This document shows positions 3 to 16,000 of a stretch of DNA of 21,385 bases, piece by piece. Source of the stretch: an uncultured archaeon. Its GTDB lineage: Archaea > Asgardarchaeota > Thorarchaeia > Thorarchaeales > Thorarchaeaceae. The translations under genes were made by a program, and so were the position numbers. The notes under the pieces are model-generated. The model was given only the letters and a program-made list of their open reading frames with translations, ran no database searches and had not been told where the DNA came from. Location of the stretch: contig CAZLEV010000028.1 in NCBI GenBank assembly GCA_964558645.1, positions 1-21,385 of the forward strand, in the 5' to 3' direction. How positions within the stretch are numbered: the stretch's first letter is position 1; every line of letters begins with the position of its first letter.

Positions 3-1448
3 CATGACTTCAAGGAGCGGTTCCCGAACATCTCAACCAACGAGTTGCAGGAGTGTCGTGAGACCGCCATAGGGATGTGGAAGGTGTATCTGGCTCTTGG
101 TCGGGGGAAACCTCTACAGGCCAAGGGATATGACTCCCGAAAACTTCCCAGACACATCTTCAAGCGACTGTTTGACTTCGTGTACACTCCTGAGAAGACC
201 ATCAAGCACTGGTTGATTCTCAGGGACTCTCTGGACTCGGTGCGAGAGGGACGGACACGTCATGACCGGCTGGCTGTACCGTTAAGCCCGTCATCGTATC
301 ATCTGAACCTGCTGGGTGAGGGTGAGAGGAAGTCGGTGCAGGTGGTGAAGGACAGACACCGAAAGTGGTGGGTACTGTTCAAGGTGAAGCTGGAGCCTGA
401 GAGCATCGAGATGGAGTCGAGGCCCCCTGCGGTTCTTGCCATCGATTTAGGTATCAAGAAGGCTGTGTGTTCGGTCTTGCTGACCCAGCGCGGGCTCAAG
501 CATGTCCGCTACTGGAGACAGGAGGACAAGGCCCGACAGATGGAGCGGTATGACTCTATGATTGGGAGCCTGCAGAGCAAGAAGGAGCGTCATCTCGCTG
601 TTGGGAAGCATGCGGATGGTGTTCTCACGAGGCTCAAGGAACTGGGCTCCAAGCGTATGAACCTGAGTCTGGACTATGACGGCAAGCTCACCCGCGAGCT
701 CTGCGAGCACATCGCGCGACTGGCCGAGTCCTACGACCTCTATGTCGGAATCGGACGGCTGAAGGGTATTAGGAACAGGGCAAGATGCGGCAACGGTCAG
801 GGAGCAGACTATCGACAGATGATACACAGATGGTCCTTTGCCAGGATCACCGAGTTTCTGCGACACAAGCTGAGCATGGTTGGCTTCAATCCAAAGCGGG
901 TTATCACCGTGTCAGAGGCTTGGACCAGCATCATGTGTTCGAGATGCGGAAAGAAGGGCCTTCGACCCAAGCAGAGCTACTTCCTCTGCCACACCTGCGG
1001 CTACCGCGCCAACGCGGACATGAACGCCGCTGTCAACATCGGACGGCGGCTCATCACGCTCATCCCTTCATTGAGAGATGAGAACGGACTAGGACAGTGG
1101 TTGCTCACTGAGGCAGCCACGCCGAAGACCCGGAGGAGCACCTGCTCTCAAGGGAGGTCCGATCCCCCCGAGAGGTTGCCAGCCTCGCTAGCAGGGGGGA
1201 CCGTGGCTGACTGCTATGACCAGACTTCTCTCGAGGAGTATGCGAGCAGTACCGACCCCGCCATGGAAAAGACCATGGAAAACCCGTCTGCCGCCGGGCC
1301 TTCTGGCAGGCACAGCACTGGAGTGCAGCGGGCTGAGGCTGAGTTCAGAGCGAGGGACCATGTCCCGATGACCTCTGACAAACGTCGTGACCACCCGGCA
1401 GGAGCGATCCTGCTGGTCGCTGGTGACAGCAGTCATGATGAGGGCTGA
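3..1448 (+). CDS. tnpB: RNA-guided endonuclease TnpB (IS200/IS605/IS607 OrfB), 5'-truncated by the window edge, with rearranged RuvC-II and a ~130-aa C-terminal tail
   Basis: The frame is open from position 3 (HDFKERFPNISTNELQECRE...). RuvC-I is VLAIDLG (Asp codon 444-446). The RuvC-II position reads YVGIGRL, with a Glu instead in VSEAWTS (915-917). Zn finger CSRC...CHTC. RuvC-III is NADMNAAVNI (Asp 1017-1019). Confidence 0.93.
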   Translation, partial: HDFKERFPNISTNELQECRETAIGMWKVYLALGRGKPLQAKGYDSRKLPRHIFKRLFDFVYTPEKTIKHWLILRDSLDSVREGRTRHDRLAVPLSPSSYHLNLLGEGERKSVQVVKDRHRKWWVLFKVKLEPESIEMESRPPAVLAIDLGIKKAVCSVLLTQRGLKHVRYWRQEDKARQMERYDSMIGSLQSKKERHLAVGKHADGVLTRLKELGSKRMNLSLDYDGKLTRELCEHIARLAESYDLYVGIGRLKGIRNRARCGNGQGADYRQMIHRWSFARITEFLRHKLSMVGFNPKRVITVSEAWTSIMCSRCGKKGLRPKQSYFLCHTCGYRANADMNAAVNIGRRLITLIPSLRDENGLGQWLLTEAATPKTRRSTCSQGRSDPPERLPASLAGGTVADCYDQTSLEEYASSTDPAMEKTMENPSAAGPSGRHSTGVQRAEAEFRARDHVPMTSDKRRDHPAGAILLVAGDSSHDEG

Positions 1449-1606
1449 ACATGGTGGTTGATGGTGATGGAGGTTCACTCACCCTCGGCAGCGTGGGACT
1501 AGGGATTGCCTGTCCTGTGCTGGCGACAACAGGTCCGACTAGGGATTCCGGTTCCTCGGGGTCCCCTGTCAACCGTGTCACAGGTCGGACCTTGTTACGA
1601 CTTCAA
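1140..1606 (+). ncRNA. Putative TnpB omega/reRNA scaffold and IS right end overlapping the tnpB tail; boundaries approximate
   Basis: Stems: TCAGAG/CTCTGA (1345-1378) enclosing GGGAC-CAT-GTCCC; GCAGGA-GCGA-TCCTGC GNRA hairpin (1398-1413); AACAGGTCCGAC pairing with GTCGGACCTTGTT (1528-1596); inner AGGGATTCCG/CGGGGTCCCCT hairpin. IS200/IS605-like end tetramers occur at TCAC 1578-1581 and TTCAA 1602-1606. TnpB RNAs are known to overlap the 3' CDS and right end. Confidence 0.6.
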
Positions 1607-1723
1607 GCCCATCTATCAGGTTTCGTCGCGGAGAGCACCGACAGATTTGCAGCAAAAATGGTGAAGGTGGATTTATTACAAATTGAAGAGATAGTAGAGT
1701 ATAATCACTAGTGAGGGTTCAGA

Positions 1724-2890
1724 TTGTCAGGGCGCAAGAAAAGACTTGAACTAATCGAGCAAATCCAAGATATCCGAAAATCGAAAGTCATAGTGTATTT
1801 CACAGGCCACGGAAAGGTATCACAGAGCATGATTGCAGAAGACGCAGTTCTTCCAATCTACCAACATCTACTCTCCTCAACGTCAGATGAGGAAGACACT
1901 CCCAACATTGACCTCTTCCTATTCACGCACGGTGGCGATGTCAGTGTCCCATGGAGGATTGTCACTATGATAAGAGAATTTTGTGGCCGATTCGCGGTTC
2001 TAATACCTTACAAAGCATACAGTGCCGGCACTATGATATCTCTTGGTGCTGATGAGGTAGTCATGGGGCGAAAAGCCGAACTGAGCCCCATCGATCCAAC
2101 GCTTGTACGCAGGACCGTATCCGAAGCAGAGATTCCTCCTAGACAGATAAGTGTCGAGGATGTGTCATCATATATCTCCTTCATGAGGGACAGGGCAGGA
2201 ATAACCGACCAGGCCGCCTTGGCTCAGGTAGTATCACAACTGGCGGCACATCTCACTCCATTGACCCTTGGCACGGTCAACAGGCAGTACTCTCACATTA
2301 GGCTCGTAGCCCGCAAACTGATTAGTTCTCGTAACGATCGGTTGGAGGAGGAGCGAATATCCTCTATAGTAGAAGCTCTGACGGAGAAGATGTATTCCCA
2401 CGGTCACGCGATAGGCAGAAGCGAAGCGAAGGATCTGGGTCTGCCTATTGACATTCCTGATTCTGAATTGGAACAAGCCATCTGGTCACTGTATCTAGAG
2501 TACGAGAAGGAATTGGAGCGGGGTCTATCCATTGACCCCGAAGAAATCTTGGAATCAGAAGACAAAGATGAAGCCCGACTCACAGATGTGCCTGTGGCTG
2601 CTATAGAGAGCGCAAAGAATCTTCATGTATATGAGATCAATGCCTTTATGAGAAGAAAGAGGCAGGTTCCCCCGAGTCCGCAGATAAACATCAACTTGCC
2701 CATCGGGCTCCCTCCAGGAATCGACCCTAACAAGATCCCCAAGAACCTGCAGAACATAATCCAAGAATTACTCAAGCAAATTGGCAACGAGATTCCTAGG
2801 TTAGTCCAAGAGGAACTGAAACGGCAGTCGCCTATCATAGGGATAGAAGGCCGTACATACGGTGGACAGTGGAAAGAAAAGACAAAATAG
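1724..2890 (+). CDS. ClpP/SppA-fold serine protease (SDH family, peptidase S49-like)
   Basis: Motifs DLFLFTHGGD, IPYKAYSAGTMISLGADEVVMG, LSPIDP and YSHGHAI. TTG start with GAGGG upstream. Confidence 0.88.
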   Translation: MSGRKKRLELIEQIQDIRKSKVIVYFTGHGKVSQSMIAEDAVLPIYQHLLSSTSDEEDTPNIDLFLFTHGGDVSVPWRIVTMIREFCGRFAVLIPYKAYSAGTMISLGADEVVMGRKAELSPIDPTLVRRTVSEAEIPPRQISVEDVSSYISFMRDRAGITDQAALAQVVSQLAAHLTPLTLGTVNRQYSHIRLVARKLISSRNDRLEEERISSIVEALTEKMYSHGHAIGRSEAKDLGLPIDIPDSELEQAIWSLYLEYEKELERGLSIDPEEILESEDKDEARLTDVPVAAIESAKNLHVYEINAFMRRKRQVPPSPQININLPIGLPPGIDPNKIPKNLQNIIQELLKQIGNEIPRLVQEELKRQSPIIGIEGRTYGGQWKEKTK

Positions 2891-2914
2891 GGATAGTGTG
2901 GAGATACATACAGA

Positions 2915-3121
2915 ATGTCGGTCAGAATCAACGTAGATTTGTATCCCTTTGGGGTCTTGACAATCAAGAGCCTAGAAACGGCAAGTCCTAAGAGTGAACC
3001 TCAGGCAGGCAGTAGCCGTGAAGTGGTCTACACATCTCCCCATCGCACATCCTCATTTGAATACGAACTCGTCTACACTACAGATGGCACTGTCTATAGC
3101 GTTCCGGCAACGACAGGCTGA
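2915..3121 (+). CDS. Small hypothetical protein (68 aa)
   Basis: ATG 24 nt after the protease stop, preceded by GGAG, on the same strand. Confidence 0.45.
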   Translation: MSVRINVDLYPFGVLTIKSLETASPKSEPQAGSSREVVYTSPHRTSSFEYELVYTTDGTVYSVPATTG

Positions 3122-3199
3122 AGTAAAGCCAACTTCTCTTAGCATTTCAATCAGAACTATCCTGTCCGACGAATAATCAGGCTCTTGCTAGGTTTCTAG

Positions 3200-4603
3200 T
3201 CAACCAGACGAACGCGAATCCATGCCGTCGTTTCCCTTCTCTCTCTCCAAGGTTTCCACCCTTTCTGCCAACTTCTCACTTTGGTCGCCAAGTTCTCTAA
3301 TCTGGAGGTTCTTCCTAGCAAGCTCTTCTTCAAGTCGGGCAATTCTTTTGTCACGGGCCCCATTCTGTTTCTTTTCTTGCAGTTCTTTCTGTGACTCTTT
3401 CTTCTCCTGCTTTGCTGAATCTCTCCTCTCTTTCCATATGCCTCCCACTTCAAGCGCGGAGAACATGAAAGCAAACACAGGGAGGGCCACGACGTAAAGC
3501 AGTACAATATTCCAGAGAAACAATGCTATTCCGACCCAGAAGGATAGGACTGCGGTTGCTATCCAAGGAAATCCCATGACTTTCCATCTTGCCTTCAAGA
3601 GTCGTAGAATCACATTCGCTATCGCAAGCAGGAAACCCAGCCACCACAACCAATCTATTACGTTGTTAGTTGCGTTTGTGACTGCAACACAAAAGATACC
3701 CAGAAATACCATCCACATATCGGCAAGATAGTCTGAATCTCCGATTGGCGACGTTGTTGGTGAAGAGGTTGATTCATCTGGAACATTGTTGACAGTTGTA
3801 TGCGCATAGTAATATTGTCCCGCTCTTCCGGTGTCACATACCCACACCGATATGATGCATTCCCCCTCTGGATACTTCGTTGAATCAAAAGCGAAGGATT
3901 TGGTTGCGGTCTTTCTTCCCGGCTGAAAGGAGTCTTCTTCTAATATCTCTCCTTGGATGCTGACTCTGTATTCAGATAGGTTGCAGTTTGATTCTGTGAA
4001 TGTAACCGTAAATGAACCTGTGCCGCTCACTTCCGAATTGAGATCTATGCTGACCTTGGGCGGCGTTAGATCTTGTCCGATGAAGAGAGTACCCGTCCTC
4101 TCGGGTAGAAATATGTCCGTAATACCCGAGAAAGAAACGAAAGCATACCACTTCTCCACATTCAACCCATTGTATCGGTGTGGGAGTATCACATTCCAGT
4201 CCATGCTGGTTGTCTGATTCCAAAACCGCGTCCTGAGAGTCTGACCCGTGTTCACAATCTCGTTGTATCCCACTTGGTCAGTGAAGAAGAAATCAATAGC
4301 CTTTCCTTCCTCATACACTTGGACATAGCCATAAAGACATATGTCATGTCCATTTGTTTCAAATGGCACCCAAACACACTCTGCAGTCATGTTCCAAGGG
4401 GTGCCTCCTTCATACAAACGAAAATCAACGTGAATCGGACTATCGTTCTCTCCGACGGTGTAGGGTCGTTGGAGCATTGTAACAGCTGATCCGAATGGAA
4501 ACCCGCCTATGACGATAACCAGAACGCCAAGGATGAGGTTTCCCATTAACGAAAACCTGTTTGTTCGGCTCTTGACAAAGGAGTTCTCTCGGCCTCTCTT
4601 CAT
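3200..4603 (-). CDS. Membrane-anchored surface protein: N-terminal signal/TM, beta-rich (Ig-like) extracellular region, Ser/Thr/Pro linker, about 4 TM helices, cytoplasmic coiled coil
   Basis: Hydrophobic LILGVLVIVIGG; linker ESTSSPTTSP; hydrophobic stretch MWMVFLGIF...FMFSAL; charged heptad tail. Start placed at ATG 4603 (GGTGGGAG upstream); ATG 4546 is an alternative. Confidence 0.75.
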   Translation of the reverse strand: MKRGRENSFVKSRTNRFSLMGNLILGVLVIVIGGFPFGSAVTMLQRPYTVGENDSPIHVDFRLYEGGTPWNMTAECVWVPFETNGHDICLYGYVQVYEEGKAIDFFFTDQVGYNEIVNTGQTLRTRFWNQTTSMDWNVILPHRYNGLNVEKWYAFVSFSGITDIFLPERTGTLFIGQDLTPPKVSIDLNSEVSGTGSFTVTFTESNCNLSEYRVSIQGEILEEDSFQPGRKTATKSFAFDSTKYPEGECIISVWVCDTGRAGQYYYAHTTVNNVPDESTSSPTTSPIGDSDYLADMWMVFLGIFCVAVTNATNNVIDWLWWLGFLLAIANVILRLLKARWKVMGFPWIATAVLSFWVGIALFLWNIVLLYVVALPVFAFMFSALEVGGIWKERRDSAKQEKKESQKELQEKKQNGARDKRIARLEEELARKNLQIRELGDQSEKLAERVETLEREKGNDGMDSRSSG

Positions 4604-4862
4604 GACGGCTCCCACCAACCATCTGCCATGATACACAGGAGTGGTATTCACCGTCCAGATTTGAAACAATCCTATTAAGCCAAGCGCTCGGTGGATTTGA
4701 GTTAAGACACATCAGGATTGCGGTATCCTGTTTGGGTTGACTTGTGCCAGATAGATGGTATCCGCCCCATCAACAGGGCCATCTTCCTATTTGGAGTGCC
4801 GAGCAGGACGAAAACCGTTAATTACTCCCTTGGCCTCAGCTCCTATCCGGAGCATTGGGGAA

Positions 4863-5090
4863 ATGGCACGACGAAAGAGTTCCAAGAACAAGAACAGCAA
4901 CTCACGCAGACTCGCTGAGTTCACCGACACCGGCCACAAGTTGACCCAGCAGGAGCTGGAGTCCCACCTCTGGGAGTCTGCGAACATCCTGCGGGGCAGC
5001 ATCGACTCCTCCGACTACAAGAACTACATCTTCGGTCTGCTGTTCCTCAAGCGACTGAGCGATGTGTTCGAGGACGGGGCGGAGCCATAG
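4863..5090 (+). pseudogene. hsdM: Truncated type I R-M methyltransferase subunit (HsdM N-terminal domain only)
   Basis: LTQQELESHLWESANILRGSIDSSDYKNYIFGLLFLKRLSDVF is the typical HsdM_N sequence. It stops after 75 aa with no SAM-binding or NPPY motifs, and no hsdS follows. Confidence 0.88.
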
Positions 5091-5198
5091 AGAATCTGAT
5101 TCTTTCTTAGTCTGGTACAAGTCTTCAGATTTGGCAATCTATCCCCCAAAGAAATATACCTCCAGAACTCGGTTTAGTCCTGTATTGAGGTCATCGGC

Positions 5199-7295
5199 GT
5201 GACAAATGAATTATTTCCTGAGAAACAAGATGTCCTAGGACGAGTGATTGAGCATCTTGAAGAAAGAGAAGCTGGTTACATCTGTGTACCAACAGGATGG
5301 GGCAAGACCTTCCTGACGAAGCACCTGATGAGATACTATCGCGATAATGGGAAGAATGCTGTCTTCTCCGTTTTCAGCAACAATGCTCTCTTGGAACAGA
5401 CCTTTGCAGATGATGAGATTGCTCCAGCAGACTTCATGATATATGGTGAAGCTCCTAAGCCCTCTATGTCAGAACTGGAAGACGCCTTGAATTCAGGGCA
5501 GGGAACAATCACTGGAGTCACAGTTGATACGATAACAAAATCTTGGAATCAGGACCTGAAGAAGACTCTCCTAGACTATGCAGACCTGTTGGTCGTGGAT
5601 GAGATTCACAACTATATCAACAACACCGGTAACACCTTCATAGAAGATGCACTGCAATCAGGAACTCACGTTTTCGGCATGACTGCCACACCTATGCAGG
5701 GTGTCGTCGGCCGTTTGAAGTTCGTAGAACAGATATCGCCAAAGATGAATGAGATCTGGAGTAAATCTCTTGCCGACTGCCTTTGTGACCGGGACCTCTC
5801 CGATATGGAATATTATGCGATACGTAGTCCTCTCCAAGCATCAGAGATCTATGGAGCAGATACGCTGGAAAAAGCTCTCCAGTCGGCCTCGGACCATATG
5901 TTGACCATCAAGGCAGATACATTGGATGAGATTGATAGACTTCTCAGGAGAACCCGATTAGCGGTCGATGCCTATAGGCAGATGATTCAGGGTGGAAAGA
6001 CGCTGGTGTTCTGTGCGAGAACACAGACCGAAGTGACCGGAGGCAATGAGGAGAGCATTCAGGCGTTCCACTCCAAGCTCACGGCCGCCCAGTTCAATGA
6101 TGAGGTAACAGGACGCCTCTCGCTAGACTATGAATTTGACAACTATCGAAGTGACGGGGGGCTCAAACGAGCTGCATTTCTATCCGGTGAGCTAAGTCCG
6201 GCCGAGAAGAAAGAGATCATCGACGGGTTCAAGGACTTGGATTCCAATCCTGAGATTCTCTGCACGGTTGAGATGTTGATTGAGGGATTTGATTTCCCCG
6301 AGTTGAAGCAACTGATTCTGCTCAGACCAACGCTGAGTCCCAGATTGTTCGTGCAGCAGATTGGCAGAGTGCTCAGGCCAAGACCCCCTGGCAAGAGCGC
6401 CAGAGTATTCGAAGTGTCTGACAGGACAGAAACCATGATGGACCATCTTGACACTAAGGATTACGAGCACCAAACATGGGTCTCGTCCCTCATGTTGGAT
6501 CCCGAGTCGCGACTTGAGATGGTTGTAGGCGAGAACGGTGACTATCGTGCATTCAAACAACATGTTTCACTCTTCGACTTAGTTCTTGATCATTCAGTAG
6601 AAGAGTGGAATGCCAGAGTCCGGCCTCTTCTTCCGATTTCAAAGAGAGCCAATCGTGTGGAGATGCTGCTTGCCTATATTCGGGGGATCAACAAGGGAGA
6701 AGACAGTATTTTGAAGGGGCGTGCTCGACTCTTCAAAGCATTGAGTGGTCTATCGGCACTATCCGTCGAAGATGTCCGGCACATTGCCAAAATCATGGAA
6801 CGGATTGAAGACGAACAGGTCCTTACTGAAACTCAGCAGGGCATAAACAAGAGAGCACAACGCCTCAAAATGGACACTCTAAAGGCCGCCAAATGGTTCG
6901 CAACTTGCCGAACCATCTACAGCATTGTACGCCCTGAGTCCTCACTAGACACAGAAGAGACCAAGGATGCCCTGCGTCTGCTGGGGTACTCGCAATCGGA
7001 CTCGGTCACAATCAGAGAACAGTGTTTCAAGAAGGGACGGAAGATGTCTGGCCTGTCCTCACTCAAAACGCGCGTTTCACGTGCCACGAAATTCGTTCGC
7101 AAAGACAGATGGTTTGGAGGAGCACACACACGTCCATCCTATAATCATGGTAGACTGAAGAAACAGCGTAAGACGCTTTGCGAAGATCTTCTCTGGCTGG
7201 AATGCTTCAGCGATATGGAGGATATGCGGGATATGCTTGAGAACAGTCTTGCAACCCTAAGAGAGAAGTCAATATCTTGCGGTCCCGGATGGTAA
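5199..7295 (+). CDS. Superfamily 2 DExH helicase/ATPase (ResIII-type N-terminal plus Helicase_C domains) with an unknown ~280-aa C-terminal region
   Basis: Walker A VPTGWGKT, Walker B LVVDEIH, motif III GMTATP, motif V LIEGFDFPEL, motif VI QQIGRVLR. Confidence 0.9.
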   Translation: MTNELFPEKQDVLGRVIEHLEEREAGYICVPTGWGKTFLTKHLMRYYRDNGKNAVFSVFSNNALLEQTFADDEIAPADFMIYGEAPKPSMSELEDALNSGQGTITGVTVDTITKSWNQDLKKTLLDYADLLVVDEIHNYINNTGNTFIEDALQSGTHVFGMTATPMQGVVGRLKFVEQISPKMNEIWSKSLADCLCDRDLSDMEYYAIRSPLQASEIYGADTLEKALQSASDHMLTIKADTLDEIDRLLRRTRLAVDAYRQMIQGGKTLVFCARTQTEVTGGNEESIQAFHSKLTAAQFNDEVTGRLSLDYEFDNYRSDGGLKRAAFLSGELSPAEKKEIIDGFKDLDSNPEILCTVEMLIEGFDFPELKQLILLRPTLSPRLFVQQIGRVLRPRPPGKSARVFEVSDRTETMMDHLDTKDYEHQTWVSSLMLDPESRLEMVVGENGDYRAFKQHVSLFDLVLDHSVEEWNARVRPLLPISKRANRVEMLLAYIRGINKGEDSILKGRARLFKALSGLSALSVEDVRHIAKIMERIEDEQVLTETQQGINKRAQRLKMDTLKAAKWFATCRTIYSIVRPESSLDTEETKDALRLLGYSQSDSVTIREQCFKKGRKMSGLSSLKTRVSRATKFVRKDRWFGGAHTRPSYNHGRLKKQRKTLCEDLLWLECFSDMEDMRDMLENSLATLREKSISCGPGW

Positions 7296-7334
7296 TTACC
7301 ACATCTGGAGGGAATACGTTGCGGATTAGTTTGG

Positions 7335-7803
7335 CCTGCAGGATGATGGTGACAGCGGGCAGGAAAGGGGTGGAACACAGAAGTGACTTGCAGTGGGGAT
7401 TTGCTCCTCCCTGTGATGAACTGGGCCGGACGTCCCTGCCTCTTGTGCGAGGAGCAGGGCTCCCCATTCGGGTGTCTGGATTCGGTTCTGTTCGGGGAGG
7501 GCAGAAGGAACAGATGTCTTGGATCGCACGAAGGGGTCTGTTCGCAGTGAGGGGATTGATCTCACTAAGAGAAACAGGTTGGCCCTAGTCTGACCCGTTG
7601 TAGGGTACTAGACCGGTTCTTCTCCTAGGTGTATCATCTCCCTGTGTACATCTGCAAAGGAAAGGTCGGCTTGGGGTCGCAGTAGATGCTTCTGAGTGTC
7701 GTGGGTTAGCACTTATTGCTCCATTGGTCTTCTTCTCTAGGGATTATGGTTCCGCACCACCGTCGAAAAGTCGGTTTGGCAGATTCCCTGTCAACCTTCT
7801 CAC
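7335..7803 (+). ncRNA. Candidate large structured RNA or non-autonomous element related to the TnpB 3' region
   Basis: Three collinear matches to 1409-1581 (31/43, 15/17 and 16/18 nt). A series of G-U-rich hairpins on the + strand. No convincing ORF. Confidence 0.55.
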
Positions 7804-8203
7804 TTGTTTGGTGTCACCTACCTTACTCCTTGATACCACATGGCGGACACTATTAGTCGCCAGACCTGTAAGAGCGACTTCCCCGACTAAAAGGGTGATT
7901 CTCATGGGATCTCTATAGAGAAGACACATCGTCAAAAGGTTGGAGACTACTTCGACCTCAAATACTACTGTCACATCTGTGCACCCCTTAACCTAACGAA
8001 TGCTATAGTGGTGTTACATCTTCAGTGCATAGCTGTGACATTTGACATTCAATCGGAGAAGAAAGAGGTCCATGGACAGTCGTTGAGCATCAAGCAACAA
8101 GAAAGATTAATACGGCGTGCTGAGAGATGCATCACGTAGGAGTTTGAGATTGCCACAGGACTTCTTTTGTGGCCAATCAAAGCTCATATGGGAGATATCA
8201 TTA

Positions 8204-9337
8204 TTGAAGGACCTTCTAGAACGAATGCAAGATGCAAACAAGCACCTTCTCTCTCTACATGAAGTGTTTGTTGACAAGAGCAACTTTCAACCCGCTGAAG
8301 AGCATGTGTTCGAGGGATATGAAAAGCATCATAGGGAATTCAACAAACTGGTTGAGGAACTGGGAATAGATGATCAGCTATATGATTCCAACGGACGACA
8401 GATGATTCTTGCTGATTATCTTGAATACATATTCTTGGGGAGAGGATACTATTCTCTGAAAAAGAGAGAAGACAAAGAGTCGTTTGTTAGGCTAATTCTG
8501 CACTTTGTAAATCTACTGATGTCCTATGAATCCATGACAGTTTCAGAGAATTTGAGGAAGGCATTTCTCAATAAACTGAAGGCCAGTATTCCCAGAATAG
8601 CGGCGGAGGACAAGTATGACAATCTCTACACGCAGACCGGCACAGTGGGCCTGAAATCTGGCAAATCGGACGCTCCAAAGCGTATCAACAGGTACTTCGA
8701 CTCGTTATTGCCGAAGACTGCTGGGGGGCTGTGGCATGAGCTATTGGTATTCGCATTCCTTCTGAGAAATGAGGTGGGGTATATTGTTCCGCTATTACTG
8801 ACTCAGAGGTTCATAGGATCGGCCGGGCATATTGTACCTCCTGATTTCCTGATTGTGACCCATAGCAAGAACATCTACGGGATTGAAGTGGGAGCAAAGA
8901 AAGAGATTCAGTCCGGTAAATTCTCTTTGCAGACAAATATCCCGACGGCTACAATTGATACTGAGAATTCAAGAACATCTGATAGATGCCCCATCTGCAA
9001 CAGATGGATAATGTTCTGCGACTATGTCCTTAGAGAATACCCCAAGTTTGACACAGCAATTGAGAAGACCAAAATCAAATGTCTGGAGGAGTGTGACATC
9101 TACTCGCCACAGGAAATCGCAGAAGGCAAGTGTCCCTGTACAAAATACAGTCGCGATAGGGCAGAAACAAAAGAATACAGTCATCATGATTTTGCAAACG
9201 GCTATCACTATCACTATAGATGTGTTCTAGATAGAGTGTGTCCCGAGATGAAGAAGAAAATAATCGATGCCCAAGATAAAACCGCGCTTATCACGCACTA
9301 TCCAGATTATTCTGGAATTGAAGAACTGATGAAATAG
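8204..9337 (+). CDS. Putative PD-(D/E)xK-like nuclease with Cys/His Zn-binding C-terminus (paralog A)
   Basis: WHELL...PPDFLIV...GIEVGAKKE, then CPIC, C, CLEEC, C and HYRC. The TTG start at 8204 (GGAG at 8191) aligns with the N-terminus of paralog B. Confidence 0.7.
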   Translation: MKDLLERMQDANKHLLSLHEVFVDKSNFQPAEEHVFEGYEKHHREFNKLVEELGIDDQLYDSNGRQMILADYLEYIFLGRGYYSLKKREDKESFVRLILHFVNLLMSYESMTVSENLRKAFLNKLKASIPRIAAEDKYDNLYTQTGTVGLKSGKSDAPKRINRYFDSLLPKTAGGLWHELLVFAFLLRNEVGYIVPLLLTQRFIGSAGHIVPPDFLIVTHSKNIYGIEVGAKKEIQSGKFSLQTNIPTATIDTENSRTSDRCPICNRWIMFCDYVLREYPKFDTAIEKTKIKCLEECDIYSPQEIAEGKCPCTKYSRDRAETKEYSHHDFANGYHYHYRCVLDRVCPEMKKKIIDAQDKTALITHYPDYSGIEELMK

Positions 9338-9810
9338 GAGATTGGCAATCTGGCAACTGAGAAGCAGACAGAAATGAGAATCCGAGGGTTACTCATCGCG
9401 ATTATGACCGAAGAAGTAGAGAATTCCATACGCAAACTGATCTCTGGTCATCATCTCCTCTTGGAACGCGCAAGAAAAGAGAATTACATCGAGATAAAAG
9501 CCACGTCCCGCTGGTTATTGGGATGGCTCATGTCATCTGCGTATCGGTTCGAAGCACAGGATGATGGCGAGATAGGGCAGTGAGAGATCGAACATAGTCG
9601 TCGTTTGCAGTGGAGATTTGCTCACCCCTGTGATGAGCTAGATTGGACCTTCACGCTTCTTATGGGGGCTAGGCTCTCCCAATTCAGGAGGATATTGTAA
9701 TGGTCGCAGCTCGGACGAGAAAAAGATGGGGCTCGATCGATGATGAATACATCAGGTGCAGGAAGGATAATAAATAGTACAGAACACGACGAAACGGTGT
9801 GACGCCCGAG

Positions 9811-10131
9811 ATGCGAAAAATCAACGAAAGCCTGTACATGGCTATGGTGGAGAGAGGGCTCAGTGCTACTCATCCCATCTTGGCAAAGGTCAAGGGAAAG
9901 AAGGTCATAGTCTGCAGCGTTGCCAGTACGGACGGAGAGAGCAACTACGATTACTCCATGGTCTTCTTGAGAAAAGATGTTGATTTGGATGGCAATGATG
10001 AAGATTTTCTGACGAGCATATGCAATATTCCCGATTGCATAGAACGAGAAAAGGGACACAAGCTGGCGATAAGGCGAGGAATGGACCCTGACAAGATACA
10101 GCTCGTTCATAGATATATAGAGAGGAGCTAG
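9811..10131 (+). CDS. Hypothetical protein (~106 aa), probably co-transcribed with the methyltransferase
   Basis: Globular-looking ORF ending 6 nt before the MTase GTG. Start is ATG 9811 or GTG 9799. Confidence 0.6.
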   Translation: MRKINESLYMAMVERGLSATHPILAKVKGKKVIVCSVASTDGESNYDYSMVFLRKDVDLDGNDEDFLTSICNIPDCIEREKGHKLAIRRGMDPDKIQLVHRYIERS

Positions 10132-10137
10132 ATAGTA

Positions 10138-11310
10138 GTGAGAGCTGCAAGAAGATTGGAAGACGTCGATATCTCCTTCAAGGACGTACCCGAATACGAG
10201 AGGACAAAACACGTCCATAGATTGCATCCTTACCTCGGCAAGTTCATTCCTCAGCTGGTCGAGTTCTTCTTGTCGCGTTTCTTCCACAAGGGGGATACGA
10301 TTCTTGATCCCTTCGTTGGAAGCGGCACCACACTGGTCGAAGGGAATATCTTGGGGCTGAATACCATTGGCATTGATATATCTCCTTTCAACTGCCTCAT
10401 ATCAGAAGTGAAGACAAAGAAATACGATATTCCTACTCTTGAGTCCGAAATTAAGGACATACTCGAAAAGACGCGGCTGTTTAGCTCCCAGTTTACGAAA
10501 CAGAAGACGATCGATCTCTATTCAGACGAGGAGCCTCCGGAGTCAGAGCAGTATTCCACAGATAGTGAGTATCTCACCAAATGGTATTCGAGAAGAGCAC
10601 TAAAAGAGCTGTTGTTCTTCCGAGAACAGATACACGAATACAAGTACGAAAAGATACTGAGCATAATCTTGACTCGAGCCGCAAGATCTGCACGGCTGAC
10701 ACCCCATTACGAGCTGACTCGAGCCGAAGAACCGATCGTCGAACCCTATTGGTGCCATAAACATAGCAGAGTTTGTGCCCCGGTTCAAGAGGCTTTCAAA
10801 TTTCTTGAGAGATATTGCCTTGACACAATAGAAAGAATCAAGGAGTTCGCAAAACTCAGAACTGATGCCTCTGTCGAGATAATCCGCGGCGATGCCAGGT
10901 CAGTCGATCTCAAAGACCACATCAAGTCCAAGATGGATGGGATTTTCACCTCACCTCCGTACGTTGGTCTGATTGATTACCACGAACAACATGAATACGC
11001 ATACGAGTTGTTAGACCTCCCGAGGTATGATGAGAAGGAGATAGGTCCAAAATCCCAAGGCAAATCGCAGAGTGCAGTAGAGAACTATCAGAGGGGAATA
11101 ACCGAAGTCTTCCGAAATGTTGCACAACAGGTGGTCCGAGATGGGCACATCTTCATAGTTGTCAATGACAAGCATGATTTGTACCAAGATATCGCTGAGG
11201 GCGCCAATCTGGAATTGATCAAAGCGTACCCTCGAAAAGTCACCAAGAAAGCATCCCGCGAACGCGCTGCCTTTGATGAGGCTGTTTTTCACTTCATTAA
11301 CAAGAACTAA
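10138..11310 (+). CDS. Amino-DNA methyltransferase, likely N4-cytosine, M.MjaII-like
   Basis: RTKHVHRLHPYLGKFIPQLVE, then motif I DPFVGSGTT preceding motif IV FTSPPY followed by IDYHEQH. SPPY is typical of m4C MTases. Confidence 0.9.
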   Translation: MRAARRLEDVDISFKDVPEYERTKHVHRLHPYLGKFIPQLVEFFLSRFFHKGDTILDPFVGSGTTLVEGNILGLNTIGIDISPFNCLISEVKTKKYDIPTLESEIKDILEKTRLFSSQFTKQKTIDLYSDEEPPESEQYSTDSEYLTKWYSRRALKELLFFREQIHEYKYEKILSIILTRAARSARLTPHYELTRAEEPIVEPYWCHKHSRVCAPVQEAFKFLERYCLDTIERIKEFAKLRTDASVEIIRGDARSVDLKDHIKSKMDGIFTSPPYVGLIDYHEQHEYAYELLDLPRYDEKEIGPKSQGKSQSAVENYQRGITEVFRNVAQQVVRDGHIFIVVNDKHDLYQDIAEGANLELIKAYPRKVTKKASRERAAFDEAVFHFINKN

Positions 11311-14858: not shown

Positions 14859-15440
14859 GTGAATCAACTTCCTGTTAGTTGGACGCCGTATTCGTAGTTC
14901 CTGATAAGCTTGAGTACAGTCTTTGTTACTCCAGCAAAGCCTACTGGGGAGTAAAACCAGAAGTCCCGTGACAGAACGTTCTCATTTTCCCTCCTTTACC
15001 GACTATACCTATTGGAATCTTCCACATCAAGATTCGCCTCGCCCCCCGTGAATCGAGAATAGTCATCCTCATGGTATCCTCCAATGCCATCGGGCATATT
15101 CCGGTGTCTTTCCCTGAGGCAAAATTCTTTCGGTGTGGCAGGTCTGTGGTAGTCACAAGGCGGCTGTCGGTCTTCACTCGAACTATCTCTCAATCATCGC
15201 CTACATCTCATTCTCCTTAGTACCCCCTCAGAACACATCAGCCAGAGTGCTCACCCCCGTTGTGGCTTTTCCGCCTCATAAAGTGTCTTCAATCTGAAGA
15301 CAAAATCTGCTTCCGTCAACCGTCCTAGTTGAATCAACAGAAAATAGAGGATGAGATTGATTCACCTCTTCCGTCAAACACTTTCTATGTTCTCCACCTC
15401 TACGAGGTGAAAGCAGCTGAAGTACGGGCCTTGATTGAGA

Positions 15441-16000
15441 TCAGTGCAATGTTTCTCTTGCCTTTATTTCCCGGTCGAGCCATCCTATTCTTGTTGAACA
15501 TTCAACAAGCTCTAGGGTGACGAAGGTCTTCTCAATCCTCTTTCTCAGATGTCCAGAACGTTTGAGTAGTTCCTCGGCAGAGCTCTCATGCCACGTTGCC
15601 ACATATCGCTCAAATATCGTGATGCCCTCATCGGCGTTCTCTCGTGCCGAAAGGACAATTCCATCTTCTGGGGCAAAGCTAGCCGAACCTATCAATACCA
15701 TTGCCACATCTACTCCTTTGACGAGTCCCGTTCGGCATTCTCTCTTGGGAGATTCAGCCTGAGTCCAAGCTCCTCCCTGCCATCGATTTCGTTGGGTCGC
15801 ACGATTATGAGCCAATCGTGTAGCTTGTCCACGGGTCCCTCGAACTCCTGGGGCACACCAGCCTCATCGAAGTACTCCAAAACTACCTCTTCTATCCTTT
15901 CGTTAGCTAGTTCAATAGCATCTCACTATCCCACTCGGCACCCGCCGCGAGTTGCAGAATCGGCGGGGCAATCCTTTCTCCTGTGACAACCTCATGCCAA
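15441..16000 (-). pseudogene. Probable decayed gene split across reading frames
   Basis: Consecutive protein-like segments in different frames: NIWHEVVTGERIAPPILQLAAG, then DAIELANERIEEVVLEYFDEAG..., then GVDVAMVLIGSASFAPEDG.... No clean start. Confidence 0.35.

Follow-up and report, generated by a model that had tools for sequence, protein, structure and literature searches.

A tnpB-less omega-RNA tail with 16S rDNA-like guide units in a Thorarchaeaceae genome

Two tnpB-less tails among stacked gene blocks

The window (the whole stretch analysed here, 21,385 nt of contig CAZLEV010000028.1, or C28, from an uncultured Thorarchaeaceae genome, G000) begins within a tnpB gene, whose first ~95 codons are found at the end of contig C10 (C10:132570-132620 codes for the same first 17 residues) and whose motifs, D..CxxC..CxxC..NADxNAA, are conserved in the orthologs (Table 1). 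The window as a whole is built of stacked blocks that carry an SDH protease, a helicase, a nuclease, a methyltransferase, and a restriction enzyme. Three other genomes have homologs of the methyltransferase immediately after tnpB tails (tblastn; L038, L040, and L046; 25-40% identity), and homologs of the SDH protease are placed likewise in other genomes. The ORF at 4755-5090 (111 aa) matches only the N-terminal 40 positions of HsdM_N; it probably represents a piece of a gene for a type I methyltransferase, which would be another sign of a patchwork island.

An earlier note had described the segment 7335-7803 as an orphan, expanded relative of the RNA region at the 3' end of tnpB, and this description is correct. 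It had listed three collinear matches to the end of tnpB, all of which are found where they had been placed. The longest (7335-7377 versus 1409-1451; 31/43, or 72%) is far above chance and belongs to a multi-copy family. The other two are present but short: the match at 7737-7753 (15/17) is an A-type 16S-like unit (CTAGGGATT...), antisense to 16S rDNA (see below), and the match at 7786-7803 (16/18, CCCTGTCAACC..TCAC) scores highest among local alignments of the two parts downstream, its score of 14 being reached in 5/500 and 3/1000 mononucleotide shuffles. The letters of the AGGG/CCCT basal stem, also pointed out in that note, are there, but the stem carries no statistical weight because it consists of only 4 bp in two copies. 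The absence of a tnpB coding sequence upstream holds as well: tblastn matches C28 only at 3-1445, and upstream of orphan 1 lies the helicase ORF, with its stop at 7295 and a gap of 40 nt. An ORF of 103 aa at 7277-7588 on the plus strand has no Pfam match and was regarded as open by chance within G-rich sequence.

A profile of the tail core matches 7336-7423 with E=4.4e-16, and the bit score of 60 falls within the range of intact copies (56-66). The terminal hairpin is stable, its stem letters differing from those of the G003 relatives. Given these scores and the stable hairpin, decay of the core part of orphan 1 is slight. The folding energy is -195 kcal/mol for the plus strand versus -143 for the minus strand, with a z-score of only -1.6; an Rfam search of the whole window matched no family, and the unique part of orphan 1, 7385-7830, matched nothing in 85 other family genomes. 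In a freshwater-sediment metagenome (2025), contigs are 95-99% identical to pieces of the window, 6790-7353 among them; the likely source samples are marine sediment. Joints in metagenome contigs from 1026, 1291, or 1451 to 7347 or 7380 have short sides of 80% likeness and were taken as other family copies.

The earlier note overlooked a second, more decayed copy at ~9540-9740, orphan 2, which aligns with 7322-7531 of orphan 1. By BLAST, 9557-9639 is 76% identical to 7339-7422, and the local alignment extends over 9505-9740 and 7282-7531, with ~200 nt shared. The scaffold 3' domain of orphan 2 runs to 9646, where it closes with GATTGG; next, 9647-9665 bears a B-like segment, ACCTTCACGCTTCTTATGG, that agrees with 16S at 11/19 positions.

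The family is large in this genome. A BLAST search with 7296-7900 found the ~50-nt core (GGTGAC...GGCAGG.GA.GGGTGGAACACAGAAGT) in at least 12 other places, orphan 2 included, and in 13 of 24 other family genomes; a core profile gives 24 copies in the genome, orphan 1 being one of them. In most copies, the core closes the coding tail of a tnpB gene, whole or broken, and there are many further truncated tails with differing 5' ends. The closest relatives of orphan 1 are the copies on C26, C9, C2, and C15 (83-87% identity), which belong to other tnpB subfamilies; the tail of the window's own tnpB, at the 72% given above, is more distant. Another kind of derivative is a gene-less element of ~185 nt, in six copies, in which a left end of ~110 nt is fused to the last 73 nt of the TnpB tail. 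Its flanks (..TCTAGAAT on the left, TAGAA.. on the right) suggest a palindromic target or a short duplication.

Table 1. Features of the window and related features, with coordinates in the window unless a contig is named
Feature	Position	Strand	Basis or remark
tnpB, 5' end cut by contig start	3..1448	+	Pfam Cas12f1-like_TNB 6.6e-15; NCBIfam guided_TnpB 4e-28
Omega-RNA scaffold of the window's tnpB	1049..1494	+	scaffold HMM 1050-1489 at positions 2-444
Guide units behind the window's tnpB	1495..1604	+	16S matches, 0-2 mismatches
Helicase (ResIII/Helicase_C) cassette	5199..7295	+	Pfam
Orphan 1, 3'-terminal domain of omega-RNA scaffold, no tnpB	7322..7429	+	core HMM 7336-7423; full-scaffold HMM
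B-type guide-like segment ACGTCCCTGCCTCTTGTGC	7430..7448	+	sense 16S rDNA 16/19 (ACGTCCCTGCTTCTTGCAC)
"Expansion"	7449..7803	+	three further end-motif units, A-like unit, decayed antisense-16S flank
Orphan 1 unit 2	end motif 7571-7582, then 7583-7598	+
Orphan 1 unit 3	end motif 7660-7669, then CTTGGGGTCGCAGTAG at 7670-7685	+	16S 1433-1449 with 1-nt deletion
A-like unit	7737-7753	+	second match of the earlier note
Orphan 1 unit 4	end motif 7765-7774, then 7775-7790	+
Cassettes parted by orphan 2	8117..11310	+
Unknown 406-aa protein	8117-9337	+
Orphan 2, more decayed copy of orphan 1	9540..9740	+	core HMM E=3.2e-10
DNA methyltransferase	10138-11310	+	Pfam N6_N4_Mtase
Diverged duplicate of 16S 3' end and trailer	~15340-15520	+	alignment to C10:126380-126960
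Frameshifted pseudogene fragment, C-terminus of the 1721-aa gene beside 16S	15525-15919	-	tblastn
~185-nt gene-less element, six copies	G000 C6:184935, C2:325363, C13:104075, C17:54933, C26:18358, C2:404516
Guide type A, ACTAGGGATTCCAGGTT			antisense in 16S; rDNA site preceded by CGGAT
Guide type B, ACGTCCCTGCTTCTTGC			sense in 16S; rDNA site preceded by AGAAT
Guide type C, ACCTTGTTACGACTTCT			antisense in 16S; rDNA site preceded by CGGAT
Guide type D, GGATCACCTCCT			sense in 16S; rDNA site preceded by CGGAT

The family scaffold and its rows of 16S-like segments

The scaffold of the family was defined on an alignment of 11 orthologs of the window's TnpB (61-68% amino-acid identity, from ten other genomes). 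Across the last ~390 nt of tnpB, third-codon conservation rises from ~0.55-0.65 to 0.8-0.9, and RNAalifold on the region from -400 to +47 predicts 104 pairs, 36 of them with compensatory changes, including long-range helices that would join the 3' core of the scaffold to upstream segments. The scaffold is thus ~445 nt long, comprising the last ~400 nt of tnpB and ~45 nt beyond; in the window's tnpB, the GTTCACTCA hairpin of the part past the stop lies at 1474-1481. The ortholog scaffolds finish in (A)CAGGTCGG, which aligns with the end of the ~185-nt derivative (..ACAGATTATC). An invariant GGACTAGGGA inside the tnpB ORF, ~360 nt before the stop (columns 40-49 of alignment A2, window ~1088-1097), is identical to the first bases of the A-type guide plus those just ahead of it; this likeness may be a coincidence, or else a pairing or decoy site.

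On the scaffold profile of 451 positions, intact copies in the genome match positions 2-444, several copies for which tblastn detects no tnpB match over ~33-440, and orphan 1 matches only positions 364-439. The 5' partners of the long-range helices are therefore absent from orphan 1, which retains about one sixth of the scaffold (its last 17%, ~95 nt), ~83% being missing. The motif GTTCACTCA, which is invariant in 11/11 orthologs and lies in the terminal hairpin, is altered in both orphans: the hairpin is preserved in orphan 1 with the loop ATTTGCTCC in its place, and orphan 2 has ATTTGCTCA. The proposal that orphan 1 is a stand-alone omega-RNA gene, made in the earlier note, finds no support in so short a match to the profile. 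With tnpB and most of the scaffold missing, orphan 1 is probably unable by now to yield a working guide RNA by itself.

In 10 of 11 orthologs, the 16-31 nt directly after GGTCGG match the 16S rDNA of the family, on either strand, with 0-2 mismatches. In intact elements, the first 16-17 nt past GGTCGG are the 16S copy. These segments (loci L038-L047 and L053 have such tails) fall into four types, A to D, and up to four units may stand in a row, each with its own ..GGTCGG before it. The 16S 3' domain has three CGGAT sites, and guides exist for each of them; over both strands of the whole gene, there are nine. Behind the window's tnpB, a degenerate A' unit at 1497-1512 is followed by GGTCCG with guide A (1538-1554), antisense to 16S, and by GGTCGG with guide C (1589-1604), antisense of AAGTCGTAACAAGGT. 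The 23-25 nt of antisense 16S in unit A reach a score found in 0/1000 shuffles. From their 16S matches and the 5' neighbours of these sites in rDNA, the segments after GGTCGG and the CGGAT/AGAAT motifs are likely the guide and the TAM of the aCas1-associated Asgard TnpB group.

Orphan 1 has the same organization. Its scaffold part closes with the end motif GAACTGGGCCGG at 7418-7429, which opens an array of four units, each composed of a scaffold-end motif (GAA..GGTYGG) and a 16S rDNA-like segment; the first reads ACGTCCCTGCcTCTTGtgC. On the plus strand of the window, there are nine GAA..GGTYGG motifs, of which four lie within 7418-7774. In the first unit, GGCCGG is followed directly by the B-type segment, so that an end motif and a target-matching segment are found together, as in a guide, with the match degraded. 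The 16S site of the segment in unit 3 is preceded by CGAAT in rDNA. The 18-mer at 7786-7803 that orphan 1 shares with the tail of the window's tnpB is the end of a decayed antisense-16S flank common to both, with different deletions; in orphan 1, this flank gives a weak collinear alignment to antisense 16S, whose score was reached by 13/1000 shuffles. As 16S-like words at K=14 have a background of ~3 per 605 nt, only longer matches or those after an end motif were used. A relative on G003:C52, again with no tnpB coding sequence upstream, has a similar multi-unit tail.

The earlier note had proposed TTGTTTGGTGTCACC..., after TCAC, as the guide of the orphan. This does not agree with the family, in which the guide follows GGTCGG, the corresponding GGCCGG of orphan 1 leading into the segment at 7430-7448. 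Moreover, similarity to the tnpB tail stops exactly at TCAC (7803), and neither 16S-like nor C-unit-like sequence was found beyond it. Other identities for the array were considered and rejected. A 16S rRNA pseudogene would need contiguous SSU homology, and only segments of 14-19 nt match, on both strands, with no match in Rfam. A CRISPR array is not indicated, the unit motifs being 66-153 nt apart and a repeat search giving only two weak two-copy families of direct repeats. The "GGTCGGAC..." modules are not independent MITEs, occurring in this genome only in the tnpB tail and the orphan.

The B-type segments have a further property. The sequence at 7444-7459 matches the antisense strand of the same 16S site at 14/16 positions and can, as a consequence, pair with the B-type segment as a hairpin. 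Regularly, a B-type guide has its own complement behind it (GTCCCTGC..loop..GCAGGGAC), as in the window (7430-7459), L038, L043, L047, and the tail on G003:C19, and the guide may thus be locked in a hairpin. The mini-introns found at the B site of 16S genes start with a similar complement of the upstream exon.

These findings may be compared with several known systems. In the TnpB loci of Asgard archaea associated with aCas1 (Cas1H-Asgard-1/-2), GTTCACTCA is conserved downstream of tnpB, and the guide was left undefined, the variable stretch before GTTCACTCA being proposed (Altae-Tran et al. 2023, PMC10691335). The window's tnpB and its orthologs resemble these loci in the conserved GTTCACTCA, in the repeats that flank the loci, and in a divergent pairing with a very large neighbour gene; orphan 1, unlike them, has neither gene. 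Contrary to that proposal, the guide-like segments lie ~15-25 nt further on, after GGTCGG, and copy 16S rDNA; the variable stretch itself is rejected as a guide because its compensatory changes mark it as the covarying 5' arm of the hairpin. The large neighbour, of 1721 aa, has no named match in Pfam, NCBIfam, a PDB sequence search, or the ESM Atlas, so "Cas1-like" is a label that comes from the literature, the Cas1 domain not being confirmed by these searches. A literature search found no paper linking TnpB guides to rRNA genes.

The TnpB and omega-RNA of IS200/IS605 elements (ISDra2 type) reportedly constitute an RNA-guided homing nuclease (Karvelis 2021; Meers 2023). As there, scaffold and tnpB overlap at the 3' end of the gene, the guide comes right after the element end, and the target lies beside a short 5' TAM. 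Here, however, the scaffold of ~445 nt is roughly twice as long, the guides are fixed copies, on either strand, of a distant conserved gene (16S) rather than of the present flank, and they come in rows of up to four, while the orphan keeps only a remnant of the scaffold. In proposed intermediates between TnpB and Cas12, the guide RNA is split. The alternation of a short scaffold-end motif with target-matching segments recalls these intermediates and CRISPR arrays, from which the orphan differs in lacking a regular period, in having "spacers" that are conserved across genomes and aimed at a host gene, and in showing no adaptation genes and no sign of processing. Finally, solo or decayed right ends of insertion sequences, and leftover att sites in tandem integrative islands, are likewise truncated, geneless ends between cargo blocks, and decayed ends show a similar graded decay among copies; the relic here differs in bearing an rDNA-aimed RNA-guide array instead of a recombinase site.

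The 16S gene, its mini-introns, and the island

The 16S gene of this genome (G000:C10:124412-126689, locus L067/L068) measures 2278 nt versus the 1478 positions of the model; it is interrupted by an intron of 740 nt, within which lies a LAGLIDADG ORF, and by four hairpin inserts, each 29-32 nt long. In 26 family 16S genes, such 30-nt inserts cluster at reference positions 1311/1317, 1347/1358, 1459-1461, and 1492-1493, and every cluster falls either within one of the four guide targets (A, B, C, or D) or in the gap that separates such a target from its 5' motif. The 16S gene of this genome is occupied at all four of these mini-intron sites. TnpB is found at E<=1e-30 in 19/19 genomes with inserts versus 2/8 without; as the genomes are related, this co-occurrence is not an independent test. 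Where both guide and 16S gene are known, the site of the leading guide is interrupted in the host 16S of G000, G004, G005, G053, and G095; in G069 and G050, the sites are intact and the guides mismatched. The exception is G023, where the C site is intact and the leading C guide matches it over 14 consecutive bases. B-type guides are found in G000 only in the two orphans, though the host 16S has a B-site intron, which could mean recent or continuing use.

In at least eight genomes, drawn from several genera, tnpB shares the strand of the 16S gene and is found 4-11 kb downstream from it; in G000, its 5' end, at the end of C10, is 5.6 kb from the 16S gene. The far side of the window carries a diverged duplicate of the 16S 3' end, followed by a remnant of the 1721-aa gene with 43% and 32% identity to residues 1582-1721 in two frames (tblastn). 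The stretch 15340-15919 is likely the distal border of an island, and the duplicated 16S tail suggests that the ~21 kb from the 16S gene to this point are inserted material. A parallel layout exists at a tRNA-Gly gene on C2, in the order orphan tail with target fragment, big gene with tnpB, and tail with target. There, a leftover tail with a 3' fragment of tRNA-Gly (G000:C2:426088-426160) and an intact tail with an intact tRNA-Gly(TCC) (432801-432973) stand on either side of an intact tnpB and a paralog of the 1721-aa gene, in an architecture like that at the 16S gene.

Origin and significance of the orphan tails

We consider it fairly probable that orphan 1 is the relic right end of an older Asgard Cas1-like/TnpB element, of a subfamily unlike that of the window's tnpB. 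The segment 7322-7803 would be the last ~95 nt of its omega-RNA scaffold together with the guide-unit array that once stood behind it. The truncation and the 16S nature of the units are directly observed, and so is the decay series, in which GGTCGG becomes GGCCGG in orphan 1 and GATTGG in orphan 2, while the B guide, perfect against 16S in L039, L041, L043, and L047, falls to 16/19 and then to 11/19. As to mechanism, TnpB would recognize intron-less 16S sequence and spare the resident gene that bears mini-introns; cutting of intron-less 16S DNA would then be the driver, with repeated cutting, repair, and insertion at the locus stacking gene blocks behind the 16S gene, and every round of insertion would leave an older tail behind. 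Orphans 1 and 2 would be two such leftovers at successive stages of decay, parting the helicase, nuclease, and methyltransferase blocks. The earlier note had named a simple decayed tnpB tail as the outcome that would speak against its own reading; this comes close to what was found, except that the tail bears a multi-unit array of 16S-like guides.

Another possibility is that orphan 1 still works as a guide module detached from tnpB, being transcribed (for example, by read-through from the helicase) and its units used in trans by TnpBs encoded elsewhere, with the missing 5' scaffold supplied by a separate omega-RNA transcript in the manner of tracrRNA and crRNA, which would make it a natural split guide or proto-CRISPR array. 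Two long-range helices (columns 402-409 and 420-424 of alignment A2) still have their 3' strands in the part of the scaffold that was retained, and these strands could in principle pair with a separate 5' RNA; C26 and C2 carry intact tnpB genes of the subfamily that orphan 1 matches. The preserved terminal hairpin, the four units with a scaffold-end motif, and the confinement of B-type guides to the orphans of a genome with a B-site intron are also in keeping with such a role. However, where a strand of the orphan would have to pair with the scaffold of the window's tnpB, about half of its positions are different (GGGCAGGA versus AGUCAUGA), the most conserved motif of the family has mutated, the guides show degradation, which is strong in orphan 2, the units are irregularly spaced (66-153 nt), and the region is conserved in no other species genome searched. 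This reading is thus unlikely, and the stricter version in which the orphan is a functioning nuclease-detached multi-guide locus, whose units are excised for use in trans alongside a 5' scaffold RNA made separately, is very unlikely. The position of both orphans exactly between gene blocks, the recurrence across genomes of a tail followed by a cassette, and the 16S-tail duplicate at the border of the island raise the question of whether the units and tail serve at present as a landing pad or cassette boundary, recognized by TnpB guides or by the Cas1-like protein in the way of attC or att sites. Against this, the orphan segments follow GGCCGG or GGTYGG and not the CGGAT/AGAAT of rDNA, so that as targets they have no TAM-like context; moreover, the loci of relatives are almost devoid of orphan tails 1.5-4 kb downstream of tnpB, and no insertion event was observed. 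Present use as a landing pad accordingly seems quite unlikely to us.

A non-autonomous IS200/IS605 derivative, as suggested in the earlier note, or more generally a MITE or PATE-like element moved in trans by a transposon of the TnpB family, has been largely refuted and is most improbable. Such derivatives do exist in this genome, namely the six ~185-nt elements, made of a left end and the last 73 nt of the right end, and several further copies keep a near-full scaffold with no tnpB detected upstream. But the genuine gene-less derivatives have defined ends and several copies, whereas the orphan lacks a left end, only 40 nt separate it from the helicase stop, and its flank is unlike the left end of the MITEs; it occurs as only two diverged copies, both in the window, and none was found in 85 other genomes.

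Taken alone, orphan 1 is most likely a fossil, and an informative one. From it we learn that these Asgard TnpB elements end, on the right, in rows of guide units whose sequence is copied from the 16S rRNA gene and that such right ends persist as separators while blocks pile up behind that gene. Should the orphan be active after all, it would bear on the origin of CRISPR arrays from the single-guide RNAs of transposons; on the multi-guide reading, it would be a naturally occurring step between omega-RNAs with one guide and CRISPR arrays with tracrRNA, its target being intron-less 16S rDNA. Taken with the intact copies, the orphan supports the idea that an RNA-guided nuclease linked to the 16S gene recognizes intron-less 16S DNA and that the 30-nt mini-introns protect the resident gene. 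If true, this would define the guide and the TAM of a TnpB group whose guide the literature had left open, and it would provide a reason for the existence of mini-introns in archaeal rRNA genes.
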